From contig CAZDXN010000002.1 in the NCBI GenBank assembly GCA_964509695.1, forward strand, positions 6,621 through 70,620: DNA of 64,000 nt, in the 5' to 3' direction. A program made the position numbers and the translations under genes. The notes under the pieces are model-generated. The model did no database searches. It had not been told where the DNA came from and saw only the letters and a list, made by a program, of their open reading frames with translations. This document shows, one piece after another, positions 37,133-58,584 of this stretch; position 1 is the first letter of the stretch; the number at the start of each line of letters is the position of its first letter. Origin of the DNA: an uncultured Pseudomonadales bacterium (GTDB taxonomy: Bacteria > Patescibacteriota > Microgenomatia > UBA1400 > MFAQ01).

Positions 37133-37140
37133 GCAGGCGA

Positions 37141-39079: not shown

Positions 39080-39101
39080 GGCTGTACTCTTAAATAAACT
39101 A

Positions 39102-39178: not shown

Positions 39179-39198
39179 GTGAATTTTAGGCACAATAA

Positions 39199-39495
39199 AT
39201 GTCCTATAACTTGATGAAAATGAGATTCTTTGATAAACTATCGTCAAATTACGAGTGCTATACTACGATTATGAATATGATTCCAGATGAAAAAAGTCAA
39301 AAGGCTTTCGGCAAAAACTTGAGATTAGTAAGAGAGGATAAAAACCTCTCTCAAGAAGAAGTCGCAACGCTGAGTAAAATTTCTACCACGCACTACGCAG
39401 GTATCGAACGCGGGGAAGAAAATCCCACTTTTTCAGTGATCGAAAGCATCTGTAAAACACTCAAAATCAAGTCTTCTCAAGTGCTTCCATTTTAA
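39199..39495 (+). CDS. XRE-family helix-turn-helix regulator; the true start may be the internal MNMIPDEK
   Basis: FGKNLRLVREDKNLSQEEVATLSKISTTHYAGIERGEENPTFSVIESICKTL. Confidence 0.8.
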   Translation: MSYNLMKMRFFDKLSSNYECYTTIMNMIPDEKSQKAFGKNLRLVREDKNLSQEEVATLSKISTTHYAGIERGEENPTFSVIESICKTLKIKSSQVLPF

Positions 39496-39559
39496 TTTTT
39501 GCTCACAGGGGAAACTTCCTGTATACTCTCAACTAAATCCTGCCTATTAAGGTCGGATT

Positions 39560-42151
39560 ATGCCAAATATAACCATCTTCCATTCAGTTATCTTCAATTA
39601 CGTAACATCTTTCCTTGTTTCTTTGAGTCCCTACATTGTTCCGTTAAAGGTAGTGCTTCTGGCTCTATTGTTTCTGTATGGTTGTTATCAATTATTCCGG
39701 ATCTATCTGATTACCAAGCAGCTAAAAGAGAAAAGTATTCTTTTTGAACTCCAACCACTCAAGAACACTGAGCAATCTTCCTATACCACTCAACAGTTAT
39801 TTGCCATTTTACATGGACTGGCCAAACAACGCACATTTTTGCACAGATTTTTTGATGTCACTAAAAACTACGCTTTCGAAATCGTCTCTACTAAAGATGG
39901 AGGTATCACGTATTACACCCGCATTGGTGAAGATGAGGCTGATTTGGTTAAAAAAACGCTACTATCATACTTGCCGGGAATCAGTGTTAAAGAAACAACT
40001 GATTATCTCGAGCAACTCACAAACCAGCACAAACGAATTTCAAACTATAAACTTGCCGGACATTTTGCCTACCCGCTCAAGCATCAGGACGATTTAACAC
40101 TCCACGATCCGATAGCCTATCTCACGGGTAGCATGACCAAGCTTAGCGAAGATGACTTGATTGCTTTTCAGGTAGTACTCTCACCGCTTCGCAAATCTAC
40201 TCTTTCCGCCGTTTCGCGCATTTCACATCTGATTTATTCAGGTAAAGATTTAGTCTCAAATATTCGTGATGAAGCCAGCTCAAATCCTTTTACGGCAGTA
40301 CTCAAGCTAATATTTCTCCTTATTGTCCGAATTGTTATGCTCCCGATCGGCATTCTGGTATTTATTGCCACAGATGGTCGGGAAGGTCCGGTGTTACGAC
40401 TTCCCACAGACCAATTACCACTAAAAACCATAAATCCGTACCAGCAGGAATTAGAACAAATGGTAAAGGGTAAGCTCGATCAACAGCTCTTTACTACCTC
40501 GATTCGTCTGATGGTAGCAAGTAATAACTACTCTGAACTGCGAAGGCGGGAGCGTGGTTTTCAGTCTGCCTTATCAACCTTGAATAATTCAGAATATCAG
40601 GCACTTGTCCCATCGTTTCGCTTACGAGTAAAATTCTTTGACCAAATAATGGAAGCTGTTTACAAACTGCGTATATTACTTCCTACTAGATCATTTATTC
40701 TCTCAGCTACTGAAATCTCCGATCTATATCACTTTCCCTATACCAGTACGACCAAAACTGAGGATTTGCTCAAGCAACATAGCAAAGAACTTCCGGCACC
40801 TCTTTCACTCAAACAAAAAACTGCTCTCGATATTTATTTTGCTAAAAATACCTATGGTGGGACTGAAACCAAAATTGGACTAACTGCTGATGAGAGAAGA
40901 AGGCATGTCTATATTCTTGGAGCTACCGGAACTGGTAAATCTACGATGCTGTTATCGATGATTAAACAGGATGTCGATAACAACAAAGGCTTGTGTGTTG
41001 TCGATCCCCACGGTGATTTGATCGAGCAAATAATCTCCGTCATTTCTCGGGATCGCATTGCTGATGTCGTTTACTTTAACCCCGATGACATTGGCTATCC
41101 GATGGGAATTAATTTACTTGAGTTAACCCCAGGACTGAGTGAAGAGGATACAATCCGCGAGAAAGAATTTATTGCCGAAAGTATTATTTCCGTCTTTCAT
41201 AAAATCTACTCCGATAAGTATTCCGGCCCTCGTATGGAGTACATCCTGAGAAATACTATCCATACGGCCTTTACGATTCCTGACGCAACACTATTTACCA
41301 TATACAAACTTCTTATAAATACTCACTTCAGAACGTCTGTTGTACGGAACCTTACAGACGAAAACCTCAAGGACTTCTGGAACTACGAGTTCAAAAAAGC
41401 CGGAGATTACCAAAAGGTAAAAATGATTTCCCCCATTACCAACAAAATTGGGCGGTTTCTGTTTTCGCCAACTGCCAAGAGAATACTTGAACAAGGTAAG
41501 TCTACGATTAACTTTGATACGATTATGAACGAAGGTAAAATCCTGCTCTGTAATCTTTCCAAAGGCAAGATTGGAGAGGACAATTCGGAAGTCTTTGGAG
41601 TACTTATTATGGCCAAAATCCAATTGGCCGCCTTAAAGAGAGCCAGGATGAAACAGGAAGATAGAAAAGACTTCTATTTGTATGTTGATGAGTTCCAGAA
41701 CTTTGCTACACCTGCATTCGCTCAAATCCTCTCAGAAGCTCGTAAATACAGATTAGGTGCGATTCTTGCTCATCAAACTACCTCACAGCTCGAAGATATA
41801 TCGCTGGTAAACATTACCCTGGCTAACACCGGAACAGTCATTTGCTTTAGGACGGCTAACCCAGAGGACGAGCGGGTGATCTTGCCACAATTTAGGCCAT
41901 ATGTTGAACAAGGTGAAATTGCCAGTCTACCCTCATATCACTTTTATATGAGACTTGGGGCACTTAATCCTGAAGAGCCGTTTTCTGGCTCAACAATTCC
42001 AGTTAAGATCGAATACAGTCAAAATAGGATGAATGAGGTTATTGAATCGTCGAGAAAATTGTACGCAAAAAAATTCACTCAATCAGTTGAACAATCCAGA
42101 AAATCACAAGAAAAACAGACTTCTAAGAGGGTATATTCTGCTGTTCCATAA
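39560..42151 (+). CDS. type IV secretion coupling protein (VirD4/TraD/TraG-like ATPase)
   Basis: N-terminal TM helices, Walker A ILGATGTGKST, Walker B FYLYVDEFQNF, and LAHQTTSQL. Confidence 0.85.
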   Translation: MPNITIFHSVIFNYVTSFLVSLSPYIVPLKVVLLALLFLYGCYQLFRIYLITKQLKEKSILFELQPLKNTEQSSYTTQQLFAILHGLAKQRTFLHRFFDVTKNYAFEIVSTKDGGITYYTRIGEDEADLVKKTLLSYLPGISVKETTDYLEQLTNQHKRISNYKLAGHFAYPLKHQDDLTLHDPIAYLTGSMTKLSEDDLIAFQVVLSPLRKSTLSAVSRISHLIYSGKDLVSNIRDEASSNPFTAVLKLIFLLIVRIVMLPIGILVFIATDGREGPVLRLPTDQLPLKTINPYQQELEQMVKGKLDQQLFTTSIRLMVASNNYSELRRRERGFQSALSTLNNSEYQALVPSFRLRVKFFDQIMEAVYKLRILLPTRSFILSATEISDLYHFPYTSTTKTEDLLKQHSKELPAPLSLKQKTALDIYFAKNTYGGTETKIGLTADERRRHVYILGATGTGKSTMLLSMIKQDVDNNKGLCVVDPHGDLIEQIISVISRDRIADVVYFNPDDIGYPMGINLLELTPGLSEEDTIREKEFIAESIISVFHKIYSDKYSGPRMEYILRNTIHTAFTIPDATLFTIYKLLINTHFRTSVVRNLTDENLKDFWNYEFKKAGDYQKVKMISPITNKIGRFLFSPTAKRILEQGKSTINFDTIMNEGKILLCNLSKGKIGEDNSEVFGVLIMAKIQLAALKRARMKQEDRKDFYLYVDEFQNFATPAFAQILSEARKYRLGAILAHQTTSQLEDISLVNITLANTGTVICFRTANPEDERVILPQFRPYVEQGEIASLPSYHFYMRLGALNPEEPFSGSTIPVKIEYSQNRMNEVIESSRKLYAKKFTQSVEQSRKSQEKQTSKRVYSAVP

Positions 42152-42181
42152 TTAGCCTACCGGTAGGTTAATTCTTTTTTT
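42152..42181 (+). terminator. rho-independent terminator after the coupling-protein gene
   Basis: ttagcctacc/ggtaggttaa near-perfect palindrome followed by ttcttttttt. Confidence 0.6.
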
Positions 42182-42253
42182 AGTTTAGACCGATAGATAG
42201 GCATTTTCTATTTTTACTTTTACCTCTTATTCCTTATATATAAGGGAAGAGAA

Positions 42254-43060
42254 GTGATACAATCACTTCAAGCTGCCCAAACTACAACTATGGACGGCCA
42301 CAAACTAACAGACTCTCAAACAAATATTCTCCACTATCTCTATCGATTCCGGTTTCTTACCAGTATTCAACTGTCTAAAATTCTTAATCAAACAATCCGA
42401 TATACCAACTATCATCTCAAGGTACTCTCAGAAAAAAACTTCATCGCCAAACACTATAATCGAACACTCGGCCTCGCTAATCAACCAGCCGTTTACTATC
42501 TAGCCTCAGGAAGCATAAAGGCTTTACAAGATCAGAAAGATATAGACAATCAAGCCCTTAAACGCATTTACCGCGAAAAAAACCGTTCCCAACAATTTAT
42601 TGCTCACGCGTCATTTTTAGCCGATTATTTTCTATTCATAAGAGTCGATTCTGAAAAGTCACAACAAATACTTCACTTCTTTACCAAAACAGATCTATTG
42701 GCACATCCGTACTTTATTCATCCTTTGCCAGATGCTTATTTTGCCAGAGTAGATAAAATAAGTATGACAAAGCGCTACATGGTAGAAGTGGTCGAAGATA
42801 GTTCTCCGCGGTTTGCACTCCGGAAACGAATTGAGCAATACTGCGACTATATTGATGATGGAAAATTCACCGAGGTCACAGGCCATGATTTCCCAACCCT
42901 ACTATTTATCTGTCCAGGCTATGCCAGCTTAATCTATCTCAAAAAACACATTGCCCGCATATACGAAGAAACCTCACTTGATCAAGTTGATATCTACCTC
43001 GCTACCCGTGAGGGTGCATTTTCTGGCAGTTGGGAAAGGGTCGAAGCTGAAGATAGTTAG
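42254..43060 (+). CDS. replication-relaxation family protein (candidate relaxase-like / DNA-processing protein), GTG start
   Basis: N-terminal wHTH LTDSQTNILHYLYRFRFLTSIQLSKIL, typical of that family. Position after the coupling protein. Confidence 0.6.
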   Translation: MIQSLQAAQTTTMDGHKLTDSQTNILHYLYRFRFLTSIQLSKILNQTIRYTNYHLKVLSEKNFIAKHYNRTLGLANQPAVYYLASGSIKALQDQKDIDNQALKRIYREKNRSQQFIAHASFLADYFLFIRVDSEKSQQILHFFTKTDLLAHPYFIHPLPDAYFARVDKISMTKRYMVEVVEDSSPRFALRKRIEQYCDYIDDGKFTEVTGHDFPTLLFICPGYASLIYLKKHIARIYEETSLDQVDIYLATREGAFSGSWERVEAEDS

Positions 43061-43257
43061 TAATCTTCGCTACGGCCAAGAAACCGATTCAGTTCCTTAC
43101 GACCTTCTTCAGTTTGGCGAAACTCCCAAAATAGTTTTGAACCCTTGTTGCTTATGAAGGGTATGAACTCGGGTAGTTTGTCCATCTCGATTTTACGAAA
43201 CTCCTGTAATCTCATGTCTACTGTATAACCTTTAAAAACTGGTAGTATTCTGATCAT
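43057..43257 (-). CDS. hypothetical small protein
   Basis: 66-aa ORF, no motif recognised. Confidence 0.3.
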   Translation of the reverse strand: MIRILPVFKGYTVDMRLQEFRKIEMDKLPEFIPFISNKGSKLFWEFRQTEEGRKELNRFLGRSEDY

Positions 43258-43316
43258 ATATTTTTCCTTTCTTGGATACCCATCCGCGGGGTGGTTAGCC
43301 CCGCGGTAGGTAACTT

Positions 43317-43631
43317 TTATAACTTGGCACTTGGTACAACCTGACTAATTGGCTTCTCGCCGAAATATAAATCCCGCTCGATCCCTAACCCAAACCTACC
43401 CGTATAGCTTTGGAGTTCTTCGAGTGAGAACGAACCCCACTCATCATTCCAATCGCCGAAGATCGAGACATATCCGAAAAATTCCTTTGACTCCGGATCG
43501 TATTCCGTAGCGTACCAAGTCCCCGCACCAGTCGGATTAAAAAACTTCGCAACCACTATTGGATCTGCACTGTCCTCCTGTCTCCCTATCTTGGCGAACC
43601 TTGTTAGTAGTTCCTTGGTTAATAGCTTCAT
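43317..43631 (-). CDS. DUF2958-like protein, common on conjugative elements
   Basis: VAKFFNPTGAGTWYATEYDPESKEFFGYVSIFGDWNDEWGSFSLEELQS...GLGIERDLYF matches the pattern I recall for DUF2958. Confidence 0.6.
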   Translation of the reverse strand: MKLLTKELLTRFAKIGRQEDSADPIVVAKFFNPTGAGTWYATEYDPESKEFFGYVSIFGDWNDEWGSFSLEELQSYTGRFGLGIERDLYFGEKPISQVVPSAKL

Positions 43632-43727
43632 AATTTTTCACCTCCCTTTTTTGGCTCTCCCCGAAAATTAATTGTTGGGAAGCATGCCCATGCTTCCCAT
43701 ACCTGGGCAATTGAAAGCGGGGTGAAA

Positions 43728-43795
43728 TTTTGCAAGGGCAATCCCGCCCTGGCGGGAGCAGTTTATTGGAGGCGAAGCCGAAAACCCTTGCAAAA
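43728..43795 (+). ncRNA. candidate structured RNA element upstream of avd (closing helix plus two internal hairpins)
   Basis: ttttgcaaggg (43728-38) is the exact reverse complement of cccttgcaaaa (43785-95). It encloses tcccgc-cctg-gcggga and ggc-gaa-gcc. Confidence 0.3.
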
Positions 43796-43845
43796 AGAGG
43801 GGCAAGGCCCTTATTTGTTGCCGGTTATTTTGTCATAATGGAACC

Positions 43846-44190
43846 ATGGAAAAGTTTATCCTACATCAAAAAACCTATGATTTTATTCTTTATCTGTACC
43901 CCATCATCAACCGTTTGCCTAAAAATCATCGTCTTATACTCGGAAGGAAGCTTGAAGAATTAGCACTCGATCTTCTCATGTCTCTCATGAAAGCCAATAA
44001 AGCGCGGGAAGAAAAGAGAAAGCGGTTACAACTTGAAACATCGGACACGCTGGATTATCTGCGTATCGTGCTTCGGCTGGCGAAAGACACCCGTCTTATT
44101 AGTGTCAAACAGTATGCACATAGTGCCGAAAAGCTCAACGAAATCGGGCGCATGCTTTCCAGTTGGATGGGGTCAATCCGCAGTGTATGA
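43846..44190 (+). CDS. avd: DGR accessory variability determinant (Avd; four-helix-bundle / 23S rRNA-IVS protein family)
   Basis: 114 aa. N-terminus HQKTYDFILYLYPIINRLPKNHRLILGRKLEELALDLL. Basic helical protein immediately 5' of the TR. Confidence 0.85.
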   Translation: MEKFILHQKTYDFILYLYPIINRLPKNHRLILGRKLEELALDLLMSLMKANKAREEKRKRLQLETSDTLDYLRIVLRLAKDTRLISVKQYAHSAEKLNEIGRMLSSWMGSIRSV

Positions 44191-44221
44191 TACAAGAGGG
44201 AAAGATCAGTCAAAACGCAAC

Positions 44222-44341
44222 ACGCCTTTCTCCGCGGCGGCAATTGAAATAACACGTCCAACGCTGGGGCGTTTACAGCGAATCTGAACAACACGCCGGG
44301 GAATACGAACAACAACATCGGGTTTCGTTGCGCCAGCGATC
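44222..44341 (+). repeat. DGR template repeat (TR)
   Basis: 120 nt colinear with 49370-49489. It has 32 adenines and 11 in-phase AAY codons. Confidence 0.93.
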
Positions 44342-44540
44342 TTGCTCACTTTGCCCGTACCCGCAAAGTACGCGCCAGAACGTGTGGTATGTATTTACGG
44401 ATACATATCCGGGGTTTTATGGATCACAGCGGTCTTTTCCTTTCCGATAGTGGGTTTGGGAAAACATCATGCCTGTATTTTTACTATTCTCGACAAGCGG
44501 ATGGTAAAGTAAATGGGTGATAACAAGATAGGGTACGAAA

Positions 44541-44577
44541 GACAAACCCTGCGACAAAAGCGGGGTTTGTCGTTTTT
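44541..44577 (+). terminator. terminator-like hairpin plus U-tract ending 1 nt before the RT start codon (TR-RT spacer)
   Basis: gacaaaccctgc-gacaaaa-gcggggtttgtc (12 bp with one G:U), then gttttt, then ATG at 44578. Confidence 0.5.
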
Positions 44578-45669
44578 ATGTATACACACCTCTATGACCT
44601 GGAAAATTTATTGTATGCGTATGCGCAGGCACAACAGGATAATCGCTATAAGCGAAAGATTTGTGCGTTCACTTTTTCACTTGAGGAAAATCTCTTTGAT
44701 TTGAGGTGGGAATTGAGCCGGGGCCTCTATGTGCCGCGTCCGTATACCTACTTCATGCTTCATGATCCAAAGACGCGCAGCATCGCCGCGCCGAATTTTC
44801 GTGATAGAGTTGTCCAACATGCATTGGTCAATGTCATTCAACCTCTTTTTGAACGTCAATTTATTTACGACTCCTATGCTTGCCGCACGAACAAAGGCAC
44901 ACATTTTGCCGCCAAGCGACTGAAGAAGTTTCTCATGGCGGCTCGGTCTTTCCATGGCAAAGATACCCCAATCTATGTGCTTCAGTGTGACATTCGCAAA
45001 TTCTTCCAGAGTGTTTCTTGGGATATTCTTCTTAAGATTATCGGCAAAACTATTTCCTGCCAGAAAACAGTGTCTCTGATTAAGACGATCGTTACTACCC
45101 ACCACAATGTTGTACCTGCCCAAACACCTCTTTGTTCGCAATTATCACTTTTTTCTTCCAGTGAAAACCCTGCGGAAACAAGTATTTCAGTTGCGCAGAG
45201 AACAGGTTTACCGATCGGCAATCTGACGAGCCAGCTCTTTGCGAATGTTTACCTCAATGCGTTGGATCACTTTATTAAAGACCGCCTGCGTATCCGCTGG
45301 TACGGACGATACATGGACGACTTCTTTGTGTTGCACCACGACCGAGCGTATCTAAAACAGCTTTGCGACACGATTAATACTTTTCTTCAGCAGAAACTCC
45401 ATCTTTGCCTGCATCCAAAGAAATTAACGATTAAAAATGTTTCTAGCGGCGTGCCGTTTGTCGGATACCGGATATTTTACGACCATGTGCTGGTTCGGGG
45501 AAATACGCTTCGACGCATTGAGCGTAGCTATCGCTCTAAAGTAAAACAGGCCAAGCACGGCCGGTTGACCAGTCAAAAACTCGCTCAAACCAAGGCTTCC
45601 ATTATCGGTCATTTCAAGCACGCAAACAGCTACGGTTTGACCAAAAAGTTATTTGAGAAAAATGAATAG
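44578..45669 (+). CDS. DGR reverse transcriptase
   Basis: RT motifs include RYMDDFFVL (YxDD) and LPIGNLTSQLFANVYL, the [LIV]GxxxSQ signature that replaces the QG motif in DGR RTs. No maturase/X or endonuclease domain. Confidence 0.9.
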   Translation: MYTHLYDLENLLYAYAQAQQDNRYKRKICAFTFSLEENLFDLRWELSRGLYVPRPYTYFMLHDPKTRSIAAPNFRDRVVQHALVNVIQPLFERQFIYDSYACRTNKGTHFAAKRLKKFLMAARSFHGKDTPIYVLQCDIRKFFQSVSWDILLKIIGKTISCQKTVSLIKTIVTTHHNVVPAQTPLCSQLSLFSSSENPAETSISVAQRTGLPIGNLTSQLFANVYLNALDHFIKDRLRIRWYGRYMDDFFVLHHDRAYLKQLCDTINTFLQQKLHLCLHPKKLTIKNVSSGVPFVGYRIFYDHVLVRGNTLRRIERSYRSKVKQAKHGRLTSQKLAQTKASIIGHFKHANSYGLTKKLFEKNE

Positions 45670-45743
45670 ACGGTCTCTCTTGCAATTCTCGCGAATTGTT
45701 GATATTATTAGACTAATAAGTAGACTGATTTTAGACTAATTAT

Positions 45744-46958
45744 ATGGCCGTCACAATATCAAAAAATCCGTTCCGAACGCCGTTTTTATCCCACTTTATT
45801 TTTACTCCTGATCTATTACCGTTCTCTGATGAGGAAATTGTAAAGCGCGATCAAGATCTTGCCGAATTTGAACAGATTTTTTTGAACCCGGATATAGAAA
45901 AAAACCTGATCAGTAAAAATGAACTTTTGGCCTCCTATGCGATTTCCAAAGCTGAACATTCGACACTTACCTTGGCGGAAGCACAAAACGTCTATACCGT
46001 AGTGCTTGCCGCACAGGAGTATGTCTTTATTCGGGAAAAGTTAAACGCCGGCAAACGGCTCACGCAAAAAGATCACGACAAGTTGGAGTTTTTTAATATT
46101 GCGAAAACGTTTCGAGAGTTTAATCAAGTTCCGTTTTCCCTCGATATGCTATCCCCACATTTTATCCAAAACCTCCATGCCTCCCTTACGCAAGGTATGG
46201 ACGTGTTTAAAACATATCTTAGTGAGTTCACGGTGTACAAATCCGGTAACTGGCGGGACAATGATCGCATACGTGTGGGCGAGTATGCTCCCGCGCCGCA
46301 TATACAAATTGCCAGTGGTGTGGATGAACTTATCGCCTGGGTGAAAACGCATCCATCCCCCGTAGGAATTGCTATCTTTCATACTGCATTCTACGCATTG
46401 CACCCGTTTCACAACGGTAACAAGCGGATTTGTCGTATCCTGGAGCATTTGTTATTTCGGAGCATTGGCCTGAATCGGAAAAACCTCTACAGTACCTCTT
46501 ACTATTACCACAAAGAAAAACTCAGATATTATAAATATCTTCTTTACAGCCTCGAGCGCAACAACCTCAACCACTTTGTCAACTTCATTCAGGAATCATT
46601 AATGTTATCCATGCTTTCGGTGATCAAAATGAGCCTGGAATCAAAACGTCACGAGTATCTTACCAAACATACAACAGGTGATTTGATCTTACGGAATATC
46701 TTAAAGCCTTTGGTGAAACGTGAGGAACTACAGTTTAAACACCTTCTCAAACCTGTCGGTCATAAAATGGCACGACAAACTTTTGTGTCCAACTTAAAGC
46801 GCGCAGGGCAAGAAAACATTATCGTCAAAAGAGAGTCCGGGCGTTCTACCTATTACCGCCTGGCATTGATAACCCAGGAGGAAAACGTCGTTGCCCAGTG
46901 GCTGACATTTATCAAAGAACGGTTATCCTTTGTTCCCGATGATTTTCTTCTCGCATAA
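45744..46958 (+). CDS. Fic/DOC-family protein with a non-canonical active-site motif
   Basis: HPFHNGNKRICR versus the canonical HPFx[D/E]GNGRxxR. Confidence 0.7.
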   Translation: MAVTISKNPFRTPFLSHFIFTPDLLPFSDEEIVKRDQDLAEFEQIFLNPDIEKNLISKNELLASYAISKAEHSTLTLAEAQNVYTVVLAAQEYVFIREKLNAGKRLTQKDHDKLEFFNIAKTFREFNQVPFSLDMLSPHFIQNLHASLTQGMDVFKTYLSEFTVYKSGNWRDNDRIRVGEYAPAPHIQIASGVDELIAWVKTHPSPVGIAIFHTAFYALHPFHNGNKRICRILEHLLFRSIGLNRKNLYSTSYYYHKEKLRYYKYLLYSLERNNLNHFVNFIQESLMLSMLSVIKMSLESKRHEYLTKHTTGDLILRNILKPLVKREELQFKHLLKPVGHKMARQTFVSNLKRAGQENIIVKRESGRSTYYRLALITQEENVVAQWLTFIKERLSFVPDDFLLA

Positions 46959-47055
46959 CCTGTCGGTAGATTAGTGGCTTGCACTTGCGCTTGCATACCC
47001 CAGACATAAATACTACTATGATAATGTACGGGATTGGACATCAATCCTGGTTTTT

Positions 47056-47403
47056 GTGTACCGTCGGACACATATGAAAAACGAAGCCAATATACCCACT
47101 AAAATCGCCATTTTTCAAGGCAAAAAAGTGCGCAAGATTATTTTCAATAATGAGTGGTGGTTTGTAATAGTCGATGTGGTTTCCGCTCTTACCGATTCCG
47201 CACAACCCGATGGTTATGTTAAAGATATGCGACGTCGAGATAATGAACTTTCCAAAGGGTGGGGGCAAATTGCCACCCCCCTTTCTGTAGAAACTGCTGG
47301 TGGAAAACAAAAACTGAATTGTGCCAATACAGAAGGATTATTCAGGGAATTCAATTTAAACCCGTCGAATTCGATGGATTTAGGAATGAGGTTTACACTA
47401 TGA
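47056..47403 (+). CDS. Bro-N / antirepressor-like DNA-binding domain protein, possibly 3'-truncated
   Basis: FQGKKVRKIIFNNEWWFVIVDVVSALT...ANTEGLFR. The sequence becomes unrelated at the point where homologues normally continue. Confidence 0.5.
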   Translation: MYRRTHMKNEANIPTKIAIFQGKKVRKIIFNNEWWFVIVDVVSALTDSAQPDGYVKDMRRRDNELSKGWGQIATPLSVETAGGKQKLNCANTEGLFREFNLNPSNSMDLGMRFTL

Positions 47404-47413
47404 AAAAACTACC

Positions 47414-48247
47414 ATGACCACTCAAAAAACACACAAAATTTCGGTAAAAGGGATAGAAATCGTAATCTTTGTTAATGAAGAGTCTGACTATATTTCTCTG
47501 ACTGATATCGCTAAATTTAAAGACAAAGAACGAACAGAATACGTGATCCAAAATTGGATGAGAAATCGTGATACTATCGAATTTTTGGGAATTTGGGAAC
47601 ATTTGAACAATCCAAGTTTTAAACACATCGAATTCGATGTGTTTAAAAATAATGCAGGATCAAATAGTTTTTCCCTTACACCAAAACGCTGGATAAAATC
47701 AGTTAATGCTATTGGGTTAATTAATAAATCTGGTCGATACGGTGGCGGTACCTTTGCTCACAAGGATATTGCATTTGAGTTCGCGTCCTGGATCTCAGCA
47801 GAATTCAAACTCTACATCATTAAAGAATTCCAACGCCTGAAAAATGAAGAACAAAAAAAGATTGAATCTGGTTGGGATGTCAAACGAATTCTCACCAAGA
47901 TCAACTACAAAATCCACACTGATGCCATTAAAGAACATTTGATCCCTAAAAACATCTCTAGCAATAGGGCTAACATTGTCTACGCTAACGAAGCAGATGT
48001 ATTAAATGTAGCCTTGTTTGGCAAAACTGCTAAAGAATGGCGAGACGAAAACACCAGTAAAGATGGGAATATCCGTGATTTTGCAGATGTCACTCAACTG
48101 GTCGTGCTGGCTAACCTGGAGGGGATGAACGCCGAGCTTATCCGCCAAGGCATGATGCAACCTGACCGACTGGTACAACTTAATCAGATTGCTATTGTCC
48201 AGATGCGGTCATTGCTTGATAATAGCAGTGTAAAGAAATTACTATGA
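47414..48247 (+). CDS. KilA-N domain protein
   Basis: YISLTDIAKFK...NWMRNRDTIEFLGIWEHLNNPSFK...GRYGGGTFAHKDIAFEFASWISAEFKLYIIKEFQRLK. Confidence 0.8.
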   Translation: MTTQKTHKISVKGIEIVIFVNEESDYISLTDIAKFKDKERTEYVIQNWMRNRDTIEFLGIWEHLNNPSFKHIEFDVFKNNAGSNSFSLTPKRWIKSVNAIGLINKSGRYGGGTFAHKDIAFEFASWISAEFKLYIIKEFQRLKNEEQKKIESGWDVKRILTKINYKIHTDAIKEHLIPKNISSNRANIVYANEADVLNVALFGKTAKEWRDENTSKDGNIRDFADVTQLVVLANLEGMNAELIRQGMMQPDRLVQLNQIAIVQMRSLLDNSSVKKLL

Positions 48248-49395
48248 CAAAAATTATTGAGCGATTGAAGCACTACCTCTTTACCCCCCGTTTCCACTTT
48301 TCGCGGTTTCAATTTAATCTGGTCGCCCTTCTTTTTATCACCGTCGGTTTCATTACCGGCACGTATCTCACGCTCAAGGGCATCACGAGCATCTTTGCGC
48401 TCAATGATACAAATAAAACCTGGACGTTTAATACCGCCAATGCCGGTAGCTACACGTATGATTCAACGCTGGTCACGGTGGATGATACAGGAGCGCATTC
48501 GGTGGCCAACAAACTCACCAATCCCGCCTTTGCGTCGGATAATTCCTCCTGGAGTACGGGAGCGGTGCCAGCCTCTGGCTGGGTGGAAGTGCCGGGCAAC
48601 AGCACGTACTCCACAACAAACTTTTTGGCCATGAAATATGAAGCCAAATGTGCGGCGACCTCTGACGCCACAACAGGCTTGACCAGTCCTGACTCGGGGT
48701 ATCACACGTACTCGGATAGCACCACCACCTGTACGTCAGGCAACAGCAAACAAGTCGTCTCGGTGGCCTCCGGCTACCCGATTGCCAACGTTTCACAAAC
48801 CAACGCCATCACCCGCTGTAGTACGGTATCCTTAAACGGCAACGCTGCGCACCTTATTACCAACGCCGAGTGGATGACGGTAGCTCGAAACGCCGAAGCC
48901 CAGGCGGGTAACTGGAGTTTGGGAAGTGTGGGAAGCGGGTATCTTTTCGCCGGACACAATGACAACGCCCCGGCCCTGGCGCTTGCTGCCTCAACCACCG
49001 ACACCGGCAACAATGCCTGCGCCTACACCGATACGGCAGGAACAACGGAAGCGCCAAGTAGCTGTCCCACCAATACCGGCAATAACACGTCCGGGACTGC
49101 CGGCAATCAAAAGCGCGTTTTAACGCTCTCAAACGGCGCATACATTTGGGATATCCCCGGCAACGTCTGGGAATGGACCAATGATACGATTCAAGGCAAA
49201 GACCAGCCGACCAATGCCTCTCCGGGCTTTGCCTGGCGGGAGTTTACCGCGCTGACCACCTACGGCACGCTCACCTACGACAAAGTCCGTCCTTTGGCGA
49301 GTACGTACGACGCCACGTACGGCGTAGGGCGCATGTATTCCGACGGAACTTCCTCTAATACCACCGTCTACGCCTTTCTCCGCGGCGGCGCTTGA
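48244..49395 (+). CDS. DGR target protein, N-terminal part as read with the standard code: TM anchor plus FGE-sulfatase/C-type-lectin-fold domain, ending at a TGA inside the VR
   Basis: TM FNLVALLFITVGFITGTYLTL. GNVWEWTND (FGE/CLec signature). Ends ...YAFLRGGA-TGA. Confidence 0.8.
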   Translation: MTKIIERLKHYLFTPRFHFSRFQFNLVALLFITVGFITGTYLTLKGITSIFALNDTNKTWTFNTANAGSYTYDSTLVTVDDTGAHSVANKLTNPAFASDNSSWSTGAVPASGWVEVPGNSTYSTTNFLAMKYEAKCAATSDATTGLTSPDSGYHTYSDSTTTCTSGNSKQVVSVASGYPIANVSQTNAITRCSTVSLNGNAAHLITNAEWMTVARNAEAQAGNWSLGSVGSGYLFAGHNDNAPALALAASTTDTGNNACAYTDTAGTTEAPSSCPTNTGNNTSGTAGNQKRVLTLSNGAYIWDIPGNVWEWTNDTIQGKDQPTNASPGFAWREFTALTTYGTLTYDKVRPLASTYDATYGVGRMYSDGTSSNTTVYAFLRGGA

Positions 49396-49489
49396 AATGA
49401 CGCGTCCGTCGCTGGGGCGTTTACAGCGAGTCTGGGCGGCACGCCGGGGGATACGGGCGGCTACATCGGGTTTCGTTGCGCCAGTGATC
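49370..49489 (+). repeat. DGR variable repeat (VR)
   Basis: Gap-free match to the TR at offset 5148. 17 substitutions at TR adenines and 1 at a C near the 3' end. Encodes ...GYIGFRCASD. Confidence 0.93.
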
Positions 49490-52400
49490 CCGTAGCCATC
49501 TCTCAATCTTTCTCCTCTTCTTCCGGCCGCGCCGGCGGCGGAAATACCGTTACTATAGGCTCTATTTCAGACGGGAAAATCTACCAAAGTGTGAACGTCG
49601 GCGATACCTCCACGTATGATTTCTCGGCCTATGTCTATGACGCCACCACCGGCAACGTCGGCGGGACGGTGACATCCTCTATCGCCCAGCTCTACTACAA
49701 CGGCGCAACCATCGCAACCACATACACCGATGCGGGTTCGGGCTGGTGGAAACTGACGGGGACGTTGACCGGCGCCAACGCCTCCCGCGAGTACGGCGTC
49801 TTGGTCAAAGCCGGGAAAACCGTGAAGGTTGATGATTTTACGTTATCCAAACAAGGTACCTACAGCGTCTATACAACAAGCGCCTATTCCAACGCGCAGG
49901 TCAATACTTGGGATACGTTTTGCGAAGGGACACTGGTTGGTTCCACCTGCACCACGGACTCGACCGCCACCGGTAACGCGGCAATCAAGTACCAGCTTTG
50001 TACCGATGACGGCTCCACCTGCCAATCCGGTTCGTCTTGGAAATACTGGACAGGGTCTGCGTGGGCTGCGGCGACTGACACCACAACGACAGTCAACAGT
50101 GCTGCCCAACTGACACAATCTGCGATGCAGGCGCTCCCGATTACCTCCCAAAAAATTTCGGTGAAAGCGATCTTGACGTTTGGCGGGAGTGATACGCCAC
50201 TCCTCCCCCACGTTTCGATAGGACTGACCACGGATACCACGGCTCCAACGACCAATGCTTCAGCAATCGCCATGACCCGCTCAAGCGGCGGAACGAGTAT
50301 GTCCAGTAACGACTGGAGCAAAGGCTCATCACCATACTTTTCCTGGACGGCTGGGGCGGATAACGCGGGCGGATCTGGACTCAAGGGGTACTGTTTATAC
50401 TTGGGAACTGATTCTGCGGGAGCACCATCGACAAGTAAGGGACTTTTGGGCACTTCGCCCGTTTCCACAACCGGTACTACCTGCCAGTTTATCGTCTCGG
50501 CAACCAGCGTCGATCTGGCTACCAGCGGCTACATCGGGACGGCACTCACCACCTCCAGTTCACCGTACTATTTTAATATCAAAGCTGTGGATAACTCTGG
50601 AAATATTTTTTCCGGCACGAGTGTCCAGTTTCAATTCCGGTTTGACAACACCGTGCCGACAAATACATCCTACATCTCCTGTGCGTCCGGCTCGTTTTCC
50701 AACGTGGCGGATATGAATTTTAGCTGGCCTATTTCCGGAAGCGCTGCCTCTTCCGATGCCAATGCCGGACTTTTAGGCTGGCAGTACCAGATCAACTCGA
50801 CGTCGGGAACGTGGCTCGGGACAACCACGGAGGCACTCCTTGGAGTGACCAACTATATTCCCTCTTCGGCCACGTCCCGCACCCTGTCGCAATCCCAGGA
50901 TGGCAGCTCCATCGTCACCGGAACCAACGTGGTGTATTTCCGCACGGTGGACGCGGCGGGCAACCCATCGGCCGACTCTACCATCCGCACCTGTAACCTC
51001 TCGTATGGCGGAGCTGCTCCGTCATTTGGCGGGACGGATACCGTGACGGTGACACCCACCACGTCGACCGCAAACTCATACGCGCTTTCCTGGCCGGCAG
51101 CTACCGCCACATCCGGTCAAACGGTAGCCCATTACTACTACATGGTCAATACTTCGCCTCCAAGCACGCTTGCCACCCTTCAGGGAAACGCGTCCACCTA
51201 TATCGACAACGGAACCACAAGGACTGTCTCTGCTGCGGCTCTTCCGAGCGTGAACAAGGGAAGCAATACGGTGTATGTGGTGGCGATTGATAATGCAAGT
51301 ACGCCCAATTACTCGCCCAGTAACGTCATTTCCGGCACGTTTACCTTGAGTTCAACCGATCCGGACAACGTTGGGAGTCTGGTGGCTTCCGACAGCAGTA
51401 TCAAATCGTCATCCCAGTGGAACGTCACGCTGACCTGGGTTGCACCCACATATCAAGGAGCAGGAAACCTAACGTATCTGGTCAAACGGTCAACAGATAA
51501 CAGCACCTTTACGCAAGTCGGAACCTCAACAGGTTTGTCCTATGTGGACAACGCTCCCTCATCAGCGCTGTACTACTACAAAGTGTATACCAAGGACGGC
51601 GCCAGTGCTCAAAGTTCGGGAACAAACGCCGTATCGATAACGCCGACCGGAAAATGGACGAGCGCACCGAGCCTTTCCACCGGTCCGGATGCCGGCAGTC
51701 TCACGACCAAAAAAGCGACGATCACCTGGACAACGTCCCGGTCTGCCGATTCAAAAATCCAGTACGGAACAACCTCGGGAAGCTACGGATCGGTCGAGCC
51801 GAGTAATTCATCGCAAGTCTCTTCCCATTCGATTCAGTTGACCGGTCTCAATCCGGGCACCACCTATTATTACAAAGCCAAATGGACTGACGAAGACGGC
51901 AACACGGGTACATCTGGTGAGAAAAGTTTTTCGACAACCTCGGCCCCAACCGTGAAAGACGTTTTGGCCAAAAGCATCGGACTGACGACGACCACGATTC
52001 AATACACCAGTCTCAACGCCAGCAAGGTGAAGATTTATTACGGCACCACCACATCCTTTGGCGGATCAAAAGAGGTGTCCACCTCGACCTCGGAAACAAC
52101 CTATACCACAGAACTCACGGGGTTATCTGACGGCACGAAGTATTACTACAAGATCAATACTTTTGATTCTGATAGCACGGAGTACGAAGGAACAACGCTC
52201 GACTTTACCACCCTGCCCCGGCCAAAAATTACCAATGTCCGTATTCAGCAAGTCGCCAACACCGCGCAGTCCACCATTCTCATTACCTGGACCACCAACA
52301 CCGACGTGTCTTCCATCGTCACCTACTACCCCGAAGGCCAGACCGGGTACGCCAGGGATGAAGTCAACGTGGCGCTCACCCGCGGTGACCACCGGATGAT

Positions 52401-52905
52401 TGTGCGGGGTCTTCTGCCGCAAACGGATTACCTGCTCGTAGTGAAGGGTCGGGATAAGATTGGCAACGAAGCGGTGAGCGACTCCCAACGGCTGACCACC
52501 GCTACCGATACCCGACCGCCACAGATTTCAGACCTGCATGTGGAGGGAAGTAACATTCCGGCAGTCACTCAGACTGCCCAAGAACAAACCGCCCAGCTCA
52601 TCGTGTCCTGGAATACCGACGAGCCTGGTAGCTCTCAAGTAGAGTTTGGCGAAGGGACGGGAACGACGTATGCCCAAAAAACCCAGGAGGACAGCAATCT
52701 GACGTTCAATCACATCGTCATTATCTCCAATCTTACGCCATCAAAAGTGTATCATGTGCGATCCGTCTCCAAAGACAAGGCTGGAAATATCGGCAACTCC
52801 ATTGACACGGTCACGATTACCCCCAAAGCGACGGAAAATGCGCTTAACCTTGTCATCACGAATTTACAGGGGGCCTTTGGCTTTTTAGGAGGCTTGAAAA
52901 AATAA
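49396..52905 (+). CDS. in-frame continuation of the DGR target: rest of VR, jelly-roll/CBM-like region, Ser/Thr-rich region, four Fn3/PAP-N-like repeats. The ORF track starts it at GTG 49591.
   Basis: Same frame as 48244-49395 with no stop in 49396-49590. Four repeats of the type ITWTT..S...V.YG......H...L.GL.P.T.Y.Y......D..GN span about 51700-52840. Confidence 0.75.
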   Translation, partial: NDASVAGAFTASLGGTPGDTGGYIGFRCASDPVAISQSFSSSSGRAGGGNTVTIGSISDGKIYQSVNVGDTSTYDFSAYVYDATTGNVGGTVTSSIAQLYYNGATIATTYTDAGSGWWKLTGTLTGANASREYGVLVKAGKTVKVDDFTLSKQGTYSVYTTSAYSNAQVNTWDTFCEGTLVGSTCTTDSTATGNAAIKYQLCTDDGSTCQSGSSWKYWTGSAWAAATDTTTTVNSAAQLTQSAMQALPITSQKISVKAILTFGGSDTPLLPHVSIGLTTDTTAPTTNASAIAMTRSSGGTSMSSNDWSKGSSPYFSWTAGADNAGGSGLKGYCLYLGTDSAGAPSTSKGLLGTSPVSTTGTTCQFIVSATSVDLATSGYIGTALTTSSSPYYFNIKAVDNSGNIFSGTSVQFQFRFDNTVPTNTSYISCASGSFSNVADMNFSWPISGSAASSDANAGLLGWQYQINSTSGTWLGTTTEALLGVTNYIPSSATSRTLSQSQDGSSIVTGTNVVYFRTVDAAGNPSADSTIRTCNLSYGGAAPSFGGTDTVTVTPTTSTANSYALSWPAATATSGQTVAHYYYMVNTSPPSTLATLQGNASTYIDNGTTRTVSAAALPSVNKGSNTVYVVAIDNASTPNYSPSNVISGTFTLSSTDPDNVGSLVASDSSIKSSSQWNVTLTWVAPTYQGAGNLTYLVKRSTDNSTFTQVGTSTGLSYVDNAPSSALYYYKVYTKDGASAQSSGTNAVSITPTGKWTSAPSLSTGPDAGSLTTKKATITWTTSRSADSKIQYGTTSGSYGSVEPSNSSQVSSHSIQLTGLNPGTTYYYKAKWTDEDGNTGTSGEKSFSTTSAPTVKDVLAKSIGLTTTTIQYTSLNASKVKIYYGTTTSFGGSKEVSTSTSETTYTTELTGLSDGTKYYYKINTFDSDSTEYEGTTLDFTTLPRPKITNVRIQQVANTAQSTILITWTTNTDVSSIVTYYPEGQTGYARDEVNVALTRGDHRMIVRGLLPQTDYLLVVKGRDKIGNEAVSDSQRLTTATDTRPPQISDLHVEGSNIPAVTQTAQEQTAQLIVSWNTDEPGSSQVEFGEGTGTTYAQKTQEDSNLTFNHIVIISNLTPSKVYHVRSVSKDKAGNIGNSIDTVTITPKATENALNLVITNLQGAFGFLGGLKK

Positions 52906-52909
52906 CATT

Positions 52910-53671
52910 ATGACCAACGCCACGATTCATATTGCTCATGTTTCCAAATCATTCCACGTCGGAGTGCAGGATGTGCCGGTACTGAGAGATATCTCCTTTG
53001 AGGTATATCCCAATGATTTCTGCGTCATTTTTGGCCCATCGGGGTGCGGCAAATCCACGCTCCTGCATACGATTTTGGGGCTGGAAGCGCCAAGTGCGGG
53101 AACCTGCACGTTTCTTTCTCAAAATTTGTATGAGGGCATGGATGAGGACGAGCGGAGCGATTTTCGCAAAAACCACGTGGGCATGGTTTATCAACAGCCC
53201 AACTGGATTAAGTCGCTCACTGTTTTAGAAAATGTGGCCTTTCCATTGATACTGATGGGGAAACCAAAGGGTGAAAGTTTGGAAAAGGCAAACGCCATGC
53301 TCGAGGTCATGGGGATGCGTGACTGGTCGGGGTACGCTCCGACGGAACTCTCGAGCGGTCAGCAACAAAAAGTGGCTCTGGTTCGGGCGCTTGTGACCAA
53401 TCCCGAAGTCATTATTGCCGACGAACCAACCGGAAACCTGGATTTTGAATCGGGTCAGGAACTCATGCAGTTGCTCGTCACTCTCAACAAGGAACAGGCA
53501 AAAACGGTTCTCATGGTCACCCATGACTTGGAATACTTAAAATTCGCCAAAACGGTGGTCAAGATGTTTGACGGCGCCATCGCCGGAGAATACGCGGAAA
53601 AAGACAAAGAAACGTTACTGAAAGAGATTAAAGGGAAACGAGGGAACGGAAATATAATATGCCAACGCTGA
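52910..53671 (+). CDS. ABC transporter ATP-binding protein (MacB/LolD/FtsE-like)
   Basis: Walker A GPSGCGKST, signature LSSGQQQ, Walker B IIADEPTGNLD. Confidence 0.9.
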   Translation: MTNATIHIAHVSKSFHVGVQDVPVLRDISFEVYPNDFCVIFGPSGCGKSTLLHTILGLEAPSAGTCTFLSQNLYEGMDEDERSDFRKNHVGMVYQQPNWIKSLTVLENVAFPLILMGKPKGESLEKANAMLEVMGMRDWSGYAPTELSSGQQQKVALVRALVTNPEVIIADEPTGNLDFESGQELMQLLVTLNKEQAKTVLMVTHDLEYLKFAKTVVKMFDGAIAGEYAEKDKETLLKEIKGKRGNGNIICQR

Positions 53672-55698
53672 AAGAAAAAACCACCATATCTTTCATCAAC
53701 CTTAAAACCGACTTCTGGAAGCTGGCGACATTTGTGCTGCTTCTCATCGTGTATCTTCTGGCCAAGATGGCAACGTCTCTCGTCTTCATGTTGGAAACAA
53801 AAACCCACGGACTCGGACAAAAACTCACCAAAAACTCATTCTTTGCAAAAGTCTTGCTCAAATCAAAGAACGCGTATGACCGCATCACCGTTATTTTGGA
53901 TCATCAACAACCCGGATCCATTTCCAGAATCGAACTCATCGAACTTTCGTTGCGGAACATGAAATCAAAAAAAACACGGACGTATATCACCATCGGCGGC
54001 ATGACGATTGGTATTGGCACGATTGTTTTTCTCGTTTCCCTGGGCTATGGGGTGGAACAGCTCGTCGTGACCCGCGTGGCCAGACTCGAGGAGATGAAAC
54101 AAGCGGACGTTTCTCCTCAAGCCGGAGGAAAAGTAAAGATTACCGATAAGACGCTCTCCAATTTTAAAGAAATTCCATCCGTAGATATGGCGCTTCCCTT
54201 GATCGCGGTCGTGGGACGGGTCAGTTATTTAAACTCGGTCACGGACATGGCGGTGTATGGCGTCACGACCGATTATCTTAAGCAATCCGCCATTAAACCG
54301 GTGGACGGAAAAGTGTTTGAGAGTAACGACCTTTCTTTTGACGTGTCTCACCTCAAAGGGCAGGTAGCCGGCGTGTCAACGGACAGAAAAACCGGGACGA
54401 TAGGTGAAAAAATCCAGGACGTCGATTTTACCATTGATCCGGGAACGTGGATTCGCGTCCGCGAGAATCCGTCAACGACTGGCAAAATTATTGGGTATAC
54501 CAAACGCGTGGAAGGGTCTCCGCAAGGAGAAGAAATCTGGGGAGGGAAATATGAATCAGATACCGGCGTGGGGACATTTGGAGAAACGGAAGACGGAAAA
54601 ACGATCGGGAAATGGATACAATCTGACGTGCTGCTCTGGAAAAGCGAAAAATGCGATCCGGCCACTCAAGGTGACTGCGAGGGTGGAAAGTATTTGGTGG
54701 CCCGAGGTGAGGACAACAAGCAAATTCAAAAAACAGGATATATTGCCGAAATAGGGATCAAACTCTCCGGTGTCAACTTGAGTGAGCCGAAAGTTTTGGG
54801 AGTAACTACGGACGCGTCGGGTAGCGCACAGGTAAATTGGGTCGAGATTGCGTCGGAAGCGGGCATTATGAAACCGCCGGATACAAAAACCGTTGATCTT
54901 TCCACGTCTGCCAAACGCGAGGCGGTGGTGAATCGGGCCATGCTCTCGGTGTTGGGCATTAAAGAGGCTGAAGCCCTTGGTAAAAAGTTTATGACCTCGT
55001 TTGTGGTGGTTGGCGATCTGTTAAGCGACTCCACGGCAAATATCGAATCGTCTCAAGCGGAATACACGATTGTCGGCGTGATCCCCGAAGAAAAAACACC
55101 ATTTTTTTACGTGCCATTTCTTGATCTCCGGAGTTTAGGCATTGCGAATTATTCCCAAGCCAAAGTGGTGGTGAAAGATCAAAATGAACTTGTCAAAACC
55201 AGACGGCAAATTGAGTCCATGGGGTATATGACCCGCTCGGTAGCTGATACCGTAGCGCAAATCAATTCGTTGTTTGCAACGGCAAGAACCGTGCTCATGT
55301 TGCTGGGAATGGTGGCGCTTTCCGTTGCGGCACTGGGGATGTTTAACACGCTCACCGTTTCTCTCCTGGAGCGTACACGGGAAGTTGGCCTGATGAAAGC
55401 GATGGGCATGAAATCATCAGAGGTGCAGGAATTGTTTTTGACAGAATCGATGATTATGGGATTTTTCGGCGGAATTTTGGGAATCATGCTTGGCGGGGTC
55501 TTAGGAATACTCGTCAGCATCATGCTATCGTTCTTTGCCGTTATCAAGGGTGTGGGGTTTGTGAACATTTCCTATATCCCTCTCCCGTTTATTCTCGTGA
55601 TTATCTTCTTATCTCTATTGGTGGGATTGGTGACCGGTATTTATCCGGCACGAAGAGCGACAAAAATATCAGCATTAAATGCGTTGCGATACGAATAA
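53659..55698 (+). CDS. MacB-like ABC permease (large extracytoplasmic domain plus C-terminal FtsX domain)
   Basis: 679 aa. TM1, then an extracytoplasmic region of about 430 aa, then three C-terminal TMs with REVGLMKAMGM. Overlaps the ATPase gene by 13 nt. Confidence 0.8.
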   Translation: MPTLKEKTTISFINLKTDFWKLATFVLLLIVYLLAKMATSLVFMLETKTHGLGQKLTKNSFFAKVLLKSKNAYDRITVILDHQQPGSISRIELIELSLRNMKSKKTRTYITIGGMTIGIGTIVFLVSLGYGVEQLVVTRVARLEEMKQADVSPQAGGKVKITDKTLSNFKEIPSVDMALPLIAVVGRVSYLNSVTDMAVYGVTTDYLKQSAIKPVDGKVFESNDLSFDVSHLKGQVAGVSTDRKTGTIGEKIQDVDFTIDPGTWIRVRENPSTTGKIIGYTKRVEGSPQGEEIWGGKYESDTGVGTFGETEDGKTIGKWIQSDVLLWKSEKCDPATQGDCEGGKYLVARGEDNKQIQKTGYIAEIGIKLSGVNLSEPKVLGVTTDASGSAQVNWVEIASEAGIMKPPDTKTVDLSTSAKREAVVNRAMLSVLGIKEAEALGKKFMTSFVVVGDLLSDSTANIESSQAEYTIVGVIPEEKTPFFYVPFLDLRSLGIANYSQAKVVVKDQNELVKTRRQIESMGYMTRSVADTVAQINSLFATARTVLMLLGMVALSVAALGMFNTLTVSLLERTREVGLMKAMGMKSSEVQELFLTESMIMGFFGGILGIMLGGVLGILVSIMLSFFAVIKGVGFVNISYIPLPFILVIIFLSLLVGLVTGIYPARRATKISALNALRYE

Positions 55699-57967: not shown

Positions 57968-58584
57968 AAAATATATTTAAAAGATTATCCAAAGTAAGCA
58001 GCCGCCAACAAATTCAGATCAAAGAAGTGGTGGATAATATCCTGGTACTTCCAGGTAACGAATACCGGCAAATTCTGGAAACCTCGTCGGTGAACTTTGA
58101 GCTCAAAAGCGAAGACGAACAGGACGTAATGATTGATAGCTTCCAAAACTTTCTCAATGCGCTCCCTTGTCAAATTCAAATCTTAGTCCGGGTAAGAGAA
58201 ATCGATATTGATAAATACGTTGAGGATATTTCTAAAACTAAGGAAAAAGAAACCGTTACGGCGTATAAAAGACAGATTGACGGCTACTGCGCCTTTGTTA
58301 AAAAGTTAGTCTCCGGTAACAAGATTCTTTCCCGGCGCTTTTACATTGTTGTGCCATACAAACATACTGACCGCCACCAAGATTGGAAACTGATTAAAGA
58401 ACATTTAGCCCTAGAAAAAGACATCATTATCAAAGGCTTGGAACGGATGCAAATGAAGGCCAGATCGTTATCAGGACTGGAAATTCTTAACCTTTTTTAC
58501 ACCTTCTACAACAGCGAAAGCATGAAAACCCAAGCGCTGACCAAAGAAACCGTAGAAGCATTTCTGAAAAACAACTATGTTTAA
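57964..58584 (+). CDS. T4SS-associated hypothetical protein, translationally coupled to the VirB4-like gene (8-nt overlap)
   Basis: 206 aa, no NTPase motif. Call rests on gene order only. Confidence 0.4.
   Translation: MKNIFKRLSKVSSRQQIQIKEVVDNILVLPGNEYRQILETSSVNFELKSEDEQDVMIDSFQNFLNALPCQIQILVRVREIDIDKYVEDISKTKEKETVTAYKRQIDGYCAFVKKLVSGNKILSRRFYIVVPYKHTDRHQDWKLIKEHLALEKDIIIKGLERMQMKARSLSGLEILNLFYTFYNSESMKTQALTKETVEAFLKNNYV

Follow-up and report, generated by a model that had tools for sequence, protein, structure and literature searches.

A stop codon in the template of a diversity-generating retroelement probably switches its target ON and OFF during diversification

We describe a diversity-generating retroelement (DGR) in a 64,000-nucleotide (nt) stretch of contig CAZDXN010000002.1, hereafter the window, in which the template repeat (TR) carries a stop codon, TGA, in phase with the reading frame of the gene that the element diversifies. 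In the window this TGA is also present in the variable repeat (VR) of the target gene, at the position of an invariant Trp, and cuts a single long frame after 383 codons. A second assembly of the same strain has an identical template and reads TGG at this codon. We propose, with a probability of roughly 0.85, that the DGR diversifies its target and also toggles it stochastically between ON and OFF states.

The element is an active DGR, comprising an accessory variability determinant (Avd), a TR and a reverse transcriptase (RT), in a Candidatus Collierbacteria genome (Table 1). It shows the features that define the class: an RT beside a TR, adenine-specific differences between TR and VR, an Avd gene, and ongoing mutagenic retrohoming. 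The TR is located 237 nt upstream of the RT, and the Avd-TR-RT layout is found in 60 or more relatives; every RT relative with 50-88% identity has an adjoining Avd gene and TR of this type. Repeat comparison within the window identified TR and VR as the only copies of the repeat. They differ at 18 positions, 17 of which are TR adenines (14 A>G, 1 A>C and 2 A>T in the VR) and the last a C/T difference near the 3' end; within the mutagenised tract there are no mismatches at other bases. The 3' end of the VR is A-poor and invariant except for this C (TR, 44337) to T (VR, 49485) difference, which recurs across relatives; in a search for a hairpin or cruciform near a 3' end of the initiation-of-mutagenic-homing (IMH) type, the inverted repeats downstream of the VR proved weak. 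Read in the target frame, the TR begins GCC TTT CTC CGC GGC GGC AAT TGA AAT AAC (A-F-L-R-G-G-N-TGA-N-N-T-S-N) and the VR GCC TTT CTC CGC GGC GGC GCT TGA AAT GAC (A-F-L-R-G-G-A-TGA-N-D-A-S-V).

An initial annotation of the window, made from its letters and a list of open reading frames (ORFs), had claimed that a TR-templated in-frame TGA at a conserved Trp codon splits one long ORF. This was borne out, and the positions and hand translation on which it relied were correct: the target is a single frame of 1,553 sense codons in which the TGA at codon 384 is the sole internal stop. It is the 8th full codon of the VR, and just one diversified codon (383) lies upstream of it. With the Trp restored, the first 460 residues match the FGE-sulfatase family PF03781 at 31.1 bits (cut-off 23.3), and a phmmer search of PDB sequences aligned 'fLRGGaW...GFRCAsD' with 'vLRGasW...GFRCAaD' of human SUMF2 (1y4j), placing the stop on the Trp. 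A structural model was made by AlphaFold for the homolog P0008, 77% identical to the window protein and standing in for it (mean predicted local distance difference test score 70.5, core >85); its best Foldseek matches were three variable proteins of other DGRs with solved structures, TaqVP (5vf4), Mtd (1yu0-4) and TvpA (2y3c), at probabilities of 0.99-1.00. From sequence and model, the target is predicted to be a DGR variable protein of the C-type-lectin/FGE fold, with the VR at the C-terminal RGGxW...GFRCA segment of that fold and the stop inside the folded domain.

Comparison with related loci, a check that the initial annotation had proposed, supports the same assignment. Of the distinct related sequences, 41 of 42 TRs and 46 of 47 VRs read TGG at this codon, and given this near-uniformity TGA is the derived state of the TR. 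In about 20 related loci an ORF of ~1,500 codons runs uninterrupted through an internal VR, and the homologs P0001, P0136 and P0153 run across the junction, P0001 aligning over query residues 4-1348. Over the 1,104 codons after the stop, comparison with the closest relative (L161) gave a nonsynonymous rate (dN) of 0.037 and a synonymous rate (dS) of 0.96; a dN/dS of 0.04 indicates continued translation of the downstream part over nearly its entire history. An exact database look-up of the 383-amino-acid (aa) product of the window returned no match.

An exact look-up of the window Avd protein led to three further assemblies of the same strain, all with an identical Avd: L186, a Candidatus Collierbacteria metagenome-assembled genome (GCA_016183355.1, contig JACPEU010000006.1) that overlaps the window at 35287-54190, and L187 and L188, the Logan assemblies of SRR12113422 and SRR12113420, which are 100% identical to window 43263-47283. 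All three carry the same TR including its TGA, which with the window makes four assemblies. Between 35493 and 54190 every overlapping base of L186 equals that of the window except for 17 VR positions, located at 49379-49463, and 16 of the 17 are TR-adenine sites. The L186 VR reads GCC TTT CGC CGC GGC GGC GCT TGG GCT GGC and differs from the TR at 22 positions, 20 of them TR adenines; its Trp codon is TGG, and its target is annotated as one 1,553-aa protein (MBI2325855.1). The window thus holds an OFF allele (TGA) and L186 an ON allele (TGG) of one strain with the same TGA template, one allele per state, in a background that is otherwise identical and has a dedicated local mutational mechanism. 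The initial annotation had suggested searching reads for a TGG VR beside a TGA TR, and this outcome was found here by comparing assemblies. Since the ~18.7 kb shared downstream of 35492 show no difference outside the VR, while an entire retrohoming event separates the two VRs, the VR appears to turn over far faster than point mutations arise. Many retrohoming events have most probably followed the TR mutation, which is common to all four assemblies.

These observations suggest a switch built into the template. A G>A change in the TR has made a TGA out of the codon for the invariant Trp in the lectin-fold VR. As DGR reverse transcription misreads template adenines alone, the third base of this codon would be redrawn each time retrohoming covers it. 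A G at this base would give Trp and a full-length, membrane-anchored protein of 1,553 aa (ON); an A would give a stop after 383 residues (OFF); a C or T would give Cys and a protein that is probably non-functional. The next retrohoming event could then reverse an OFF allele, and the TGG allele of L186 was itself probably made from the TGA template. Third-position adenines are indeed mutable in this RT family, as ACA>ACC, TCA>TCG and TAA>TAG changes illustrate.

The odds of each outcome can be approximated from substitution spectra. The bRT-Avd complex is reported to substitute ~50% of template adenines (PMC6182149), in agreement with VRs across this RT family, where 51% of TR adenines are kept, 23% become G, 15% T and 10% C. 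In the two VR alleles of the strain, 27 of 64 template adenines are kept, 31 are G, 3 are C and 3 are T. Taken at face value, and these spectra are post-selection, they put the codon roughly at 42-51% stop, 23-48% Trp and 9-26% Cys, so that ON and OFF would be about equally likely at each event. Of the 37 adenine substitutions in the strain's two alleles 31 are A>G, compared with ~48% of substitutions in the family as a whole; this bias gives Gly-rich VRs and would make TGG the main non-stop outcome at the TGA codon.

Two features of the strain's VRs lie at their 5' edge. Codon 383 is GCT (TR AAT) in both alleles, although everything downstream differs, and this agreement at 49390-49392 points to common descent of the 5' end or to incomplete conversion there. 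A non-adenine T>G change (TR CTC, VR CGC) affects the Leu codon of L186 at about 14104, corresponding to window position 49379. The same change is found in the VRs of L007, L100, L097 and L115, several independent elements, and it may mark a 5' crossover or slippage on CGC-CGC-GGC-GGC.

Related elements have an internal template stop at a different codon. In six distinct related TRs (L001/L127/L167, L014, L081, L116, L163 and the L165 group) the Leu codon of A-F-L-R-G-G, which precedes the Trp codon by five codons, is TAA. On the RT tree these elements occupy four to five separate positions, interspersed with lineages that have CTC, CTT or ATC instead, and L001 and L127 (RT identity 82-88%), the closest relatives of the window whose TR is known, belong to them. 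The VR codon opposite the template TAA is TAG in L001 and L116, TGA in L081, L163 and L165, and TTA (Leu) in L014, all in agreement with adenine mutagenesis of TAA. In L081 the target is a frame of ~1,597 codons whose sole break is the templated TGA (VR stop at 4448). For a TAA template the expected ON fraction is ~11%, since Leu requires A>T at the second codon position.

The parallel is most complete in the species of L165 (TR at 3452, VR at 7941; the related loci L170-L185 were examined too). From a single TAA template, its distinct DNA alleles carry TGA, TTA, TAG, TAA with a frameshift, TGA, TAA and TAA, and there are two further Leu alleles. This amounts to at least six independent OFF alleles and three ON alleles, all Leu, with no other missense codon, and each allele has its own diversified VR. 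In the 90%-identity protein cluster of L165, full-length proteins of 1,566 aa with three VR variants occur on 22 contigs, and 383-aa fragments on 61 contigs among the members listed. Natural ON/OFF polymorphism arising from a template stop is thus well documented in this sister element, and its alleles would lend indirect support to high-frequency switching. The TAA alleles of this species also refuted the idea that TAA is depleted among templated stops through selection for leaky stops, which had rested on a count of 0/5 (p about 0.02).

Frameshifts add to the variety of VR states in the family. Frameshifting indels of 1-2 nt are present in 9 of 47 distinct family VRs (L001, L009, L098, L162, L163, L164, L167, L178 and others), a share that roughly fits the RT indel rate of 0.1% per base reported previously (PMC6182149). 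L167 has two different VR versions in tandem, probably the assembly of a mixed population.

We weighed stochastic switching, the reading of the initial annotation that fits best with the TGG allele of L186 and the many alleles of the TAA relatives, against several points. only one of the 42 distinct TRs has TGA at the Trp codon, as expected for a recent and possibly transient mutation; VR alleles of this strain number only two, one ON and one OFF, both from assemblies; no Cys allele (TGC or TGT) occurs at codon 384 among the alleles observed; and protein production and the switch phenotype are predictions from the effect of the codon. The TGG of L186 might also predate the TR mutation, which the rapid VR turnover makes unlikely. 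The same point bears on whether the template has simply suffered a recent damaging mutation and the element is decaying, with the window VR as the first copy of the TGA, the L186 TGG as an older allele and the gene on its way to being lost. The uniqueness of the TGA, the single ON and single OFF allele known for the strain, and published accounts of TR codons that avoid nonsense outcomes (PMC4372165; PMC10907252) are all compatible with such decay. We nevertheless consider it unlikely: RT, Avd and the 1,552 other target codons are intact, the mutagenised tract is free of non-adenine mismatches, dN/dS downstream of the stop is 0.04, and sister elements have kept a template TAA across deep RT divergence with targets that are intact and switch ON and OFF. 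Moreover, the TR mutation predates the split between window and L186, and with at least one full retrohoming event since then an unrewritten TGG allele is improbable. Of the initial annotation's third reading, a TGG>TGA change copied into the VR of a self-inactivated DGR, the recent change therefore stands and the self-inactivation does not, as the machinery is intact and an ON allele coexists.

Translation through the stop could make the window allele effectively ON if UGA 384 were read as Trp often enough. Of the three bacterial stops UGA leaks most, and its near-cognate readthrough yields Trp, the very residue that this position requires; the frame, moreover, remains open for another 1,169 codons. 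Low-level readthrough of this kind at codon 384 is possible; local recoding as the explanation of the locus is very improbable. TGA behaves as an ordinary stop in the window, where it ends nine other genes, several at ATGA overlaps, one of the nine being a 253-aa ABC ATPase whose L164 homolog is also 253 aa. Global reassignment of UGA (translation tables 4 or 25) was rejected: 10 of the 46 long ORFs of the window end in TGA, the other nine cannot be extended, and reading TGA as sense fuses no further ORFs. A tRNA scan of the window gave only tRNA-Val(GAC) and a doubtful tRNA-Leu(TAG), with no suppressor tRNA; between 49300 and 49750 there was no Rfam match above noise, neither a selenocysteine insertion sequence nor another recoding RNA family, and folding of the 100 nt that follow the stop is no more stable than that of shuffled sequences (z = +0.66). 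This stretch can harbour no conserved signal, since each retrohoming rewrites it. Among relatives all three stops occur at the templated position, a pattern that no single recoding explains, and the isogenic ON allele uses an ordinary TGG. Least credible of all is an assembly or consensus error, or a pair of separate genes encoding 383 aa and an independently started 1,104 aa. Gene callers did split the halves in this way on the source contig of 75,310 nt (P0154, 383 aa; P0140, 1,104 aa), and many database homologs begin inside or just after the VR. The TR base is the same in all four assemblies, however, and TR and VR differ within 3 nt on each side of the codon, so that their reads cannot be confused. 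The suggestion that homologous targets end at this position, with a separate gene downstream, is contradicted by the continuous frames of the relatives, where intact homologs are the norm. A boundary here would fall at the invariant Trp within a folded domain, and the first downstream in-frame start is a GTG 65 codons on, within conserved coding sequence. On the contigs that were fetched, the apparent starts in or after the VR traced to a contig end inside the VR (L161), 1-nt VR indels (L162, L164) and templated stops (L163, L165).

If the switch operates as proposed, it could be either selected or merely tolerated. We raise only tentatively, as somewhat less probable than not, that template stops are a selected feature of this DGR family from the Candidate Phyla Radiation (CPR), forming an RT-driven phase-variation switch. 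A costly giant surface adhesin on a conjugative island would then stay OFF in a large share of the population, each of the rare ON cells would display a new binding site, and the window TR would have lost its relatives' TAA and gained a TGA five codons downstream, one switch codon replacing another. Consistent with selection, TAA recurs and persists for long at one codon, stop alleles are abundant and non-Leu missense absent in the L165 species, and at the Leu codon the window reads CTC, in contrast to the TAA of the closest relatives whose TR is known. Tolerance fits the singleton status of TGA at Trp; a twofold loss of productive events would be a small cost where most products are non-binders; and with 9 of 47 VRs frameshifted, VR states look close to unselected DGR output.

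DGRs are understood as varying a binding site while protecting the protein, with template codons chosen against stops. In the literature, TR codon choice is said to exclude nonsense outcomes (PMC4372165; PMC10907252; bioRxiv 2024.11.15.621889), and in open-access sources we found no description of templated internal stops or DGR-driven phase variation. We used more distant DGR loci from the same RT query as controls. AAG, AAA or AGA occurs in ~45% of these unrelated TRs, which rules out the candidate rule that any nonsense-capable TR codon is exceptional; such codons (~8% stop per event) never appear as a stop in their own VR, and full stops in the control TRs are natural C-terminal stops of the targets or frame-assignment errors only. 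The initial annotation's premise that a nonsense-capable template codon is unusual accordingly fails for AAG, AAA and AGA and holds for a full stop inside the template. A full stop codon internal to the target appears, by this comparison, to be special to this DGR family, and a scan of viral contigs for TRs with TGA or TAA found none.

In most respects the window element resembles canonical DGRs (BPP-1 Mtd, Treponema TvpA, Thermus TaqVP and CPR/DPANN DGRs): it combines Avd, RT and TR, its mutagenesis is adenine-specific, its template is rich in AAY codons, and its VR occupies the RGGxW...GFRCA end of a C-type-lectin/FGE fold with an invariant 3' end. It departs from them in having TGA at a structurally invariant Trp, such that retrohoming would decide expression as well as binding-site sequence, and in having an internal VR followed by ~1,130 residues of FN3/Ig-like repeats where canonical VRs are C-terminal. 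With its TAA sisters it shares the RT clade, target architecture and neighbourhood, a stop near the VR 5' end, targets broken by the templated stop alone and coexisting ON and OFF alleles; unlike them it has CTC at the Leu codon and TGA at the Trp codon, and needs A>G, the strain's commonest substitution. As in classical phase variation, the switch would be a stochastic, heritable and in principle reversible ON/OFF change of a surface protein through programmed local mutation, with OFF reached by premature termination as in frameshifting repeat tracts. In contrast to contingency loci (slipped-strand repeats, invertible promoters, intragenic invertons), it would work by templated reverse transcription rather than slippage or a recombinase, and each switch event would redraw the ligand-binding residues too.

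Such a mechanism would add expression switching to the known outputs of DGRs and provide a reverse-transcriptase-based route to phase variation. It would offer a simple explanation for many 'split' or 'pseudogene' DGR targets in metagenome annotations, and in gene calling and DGR surveys a stop inside a VR that has its counterpart in the TR should not end the frame. In engineered DGRs, a stop placed in the template could serve as a built-in selector between on and off. The switch may also bear on how ultra-small CPR episymbionts regulate attachment or mating.

Table 1. Features of the retroelement, its target and the surrounding island (window coordinates)
Feature	Position	Strand	Remarks
tRNA-Val	35485-35560		island start
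Large serine recombinase	37141-38916	-	
VirD4-like coupling protein	39560-42151		
Replic_Relax and DUF2958			within island
Complete DGR including target	43846-52905	+	
bAvd (accessory variability determinant)	43846..44190	+	114 aa, intact; Pfam PF22296, 83.6 bits, profile positions 1-106/107
TR (template repeat)	44222..44341	+	120 nt, 32 adenines; between avd and RT
TGA within TR	44245..44247	+	in phase with target frame; Trp-codon position
DGR reverse transcriptase	44578..45669	+	363 aa, intact; Pfam RVT_1, 78.7 bits
Genes inserted between RT and target	45744..48247	+	Pfam; same order called in L186
Fic gene	45744-46958	+	Pfam
Small Bro-N-like ORF	about 47056-47403	+	
KilA-N gene	47414-48247	+	its TGA stop overlaps target ATG as ATGA
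Target, 5' part	48244..49395	+	383 codons + TGA; N-terminal membrane helix, most of FGE/C-type-lectin-fold domain
VR (variable repeat)	49370..49489	+	substitutions at TR adenines span 49390-49462
In-frame TGA, codon 384	49393..49395	+	conserved Trp position; OFF state; TGG in L186
Target, 3' part	49396..52905	+	1,169 codons + TAA; FN3/Ig-like repeats, same frame, no other stop
ABC ATPase + MacB/FtsX-type permease	52910..55698	+	Pfam; directly downstream of target
Type IV secretion system (T4SS) pilin/TrbL protein	56196-57488		downstream of ABC/MacB pair
PrgI			T4SS gene of island
VirB4-like ATPase	58577-60376		then M23 peptidase
LexA/S24-type repressor	61070-61696		far end of island
Thoeris-like ThsB(TIR)-ThsA(Macro)-ThsB(TIR) cluster	61698-63612		

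The DGR and its target lie within an island of about 35485-63612, reaching beyond 63.6 kb, that, from its gene content, looks like an integrative conjugative element; the same synteny is present in L164 and L167. The ABC/MacB pair directly follows the target in the window, L162, L164, L167 and L170, and this conserved order suggests that it may be a dedicated export or assembly partner of the target. More speculatively, the target could be a surface adhesin of the conjugation or attachment apparatus. Outside the VR, window and L186 differ only beside the tRNA-Val, at 35428-35492, by a cluster of 22 mismatch or indel positions; a variant attachment site, another hypervariable spot or an artefact of the contig end could account for it. 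The tRNA-Leu(TAG) called by ARAGORN at 37182-37264 (+) falls within the ORF of the serine recombinase, which is encoded on the other strand, and may be a false positive or an integration-site remnant.

Elsewhere in the window, 21146-22447 contains three tandem 92-nt units and a fourth, dispersed copy, all composed of two GC-rich palindromes, GTCATTCCCGAC..GTCGGGAATC and GGATCCCCGC..GCGGGGATGAC; the unit resembles an intergenic repeat of the repetitive extragenic palindromic type. In a type IV pilus cluster (14770-17525), a prepilin-type N-terminus is common to four genes. Short runs with an 8-nt period (GAATCTAC / GAATTTAC) occur at 10865-10921, 15682-15722 and 16136-16184, just upstream of pilin-like genes of the cluster.

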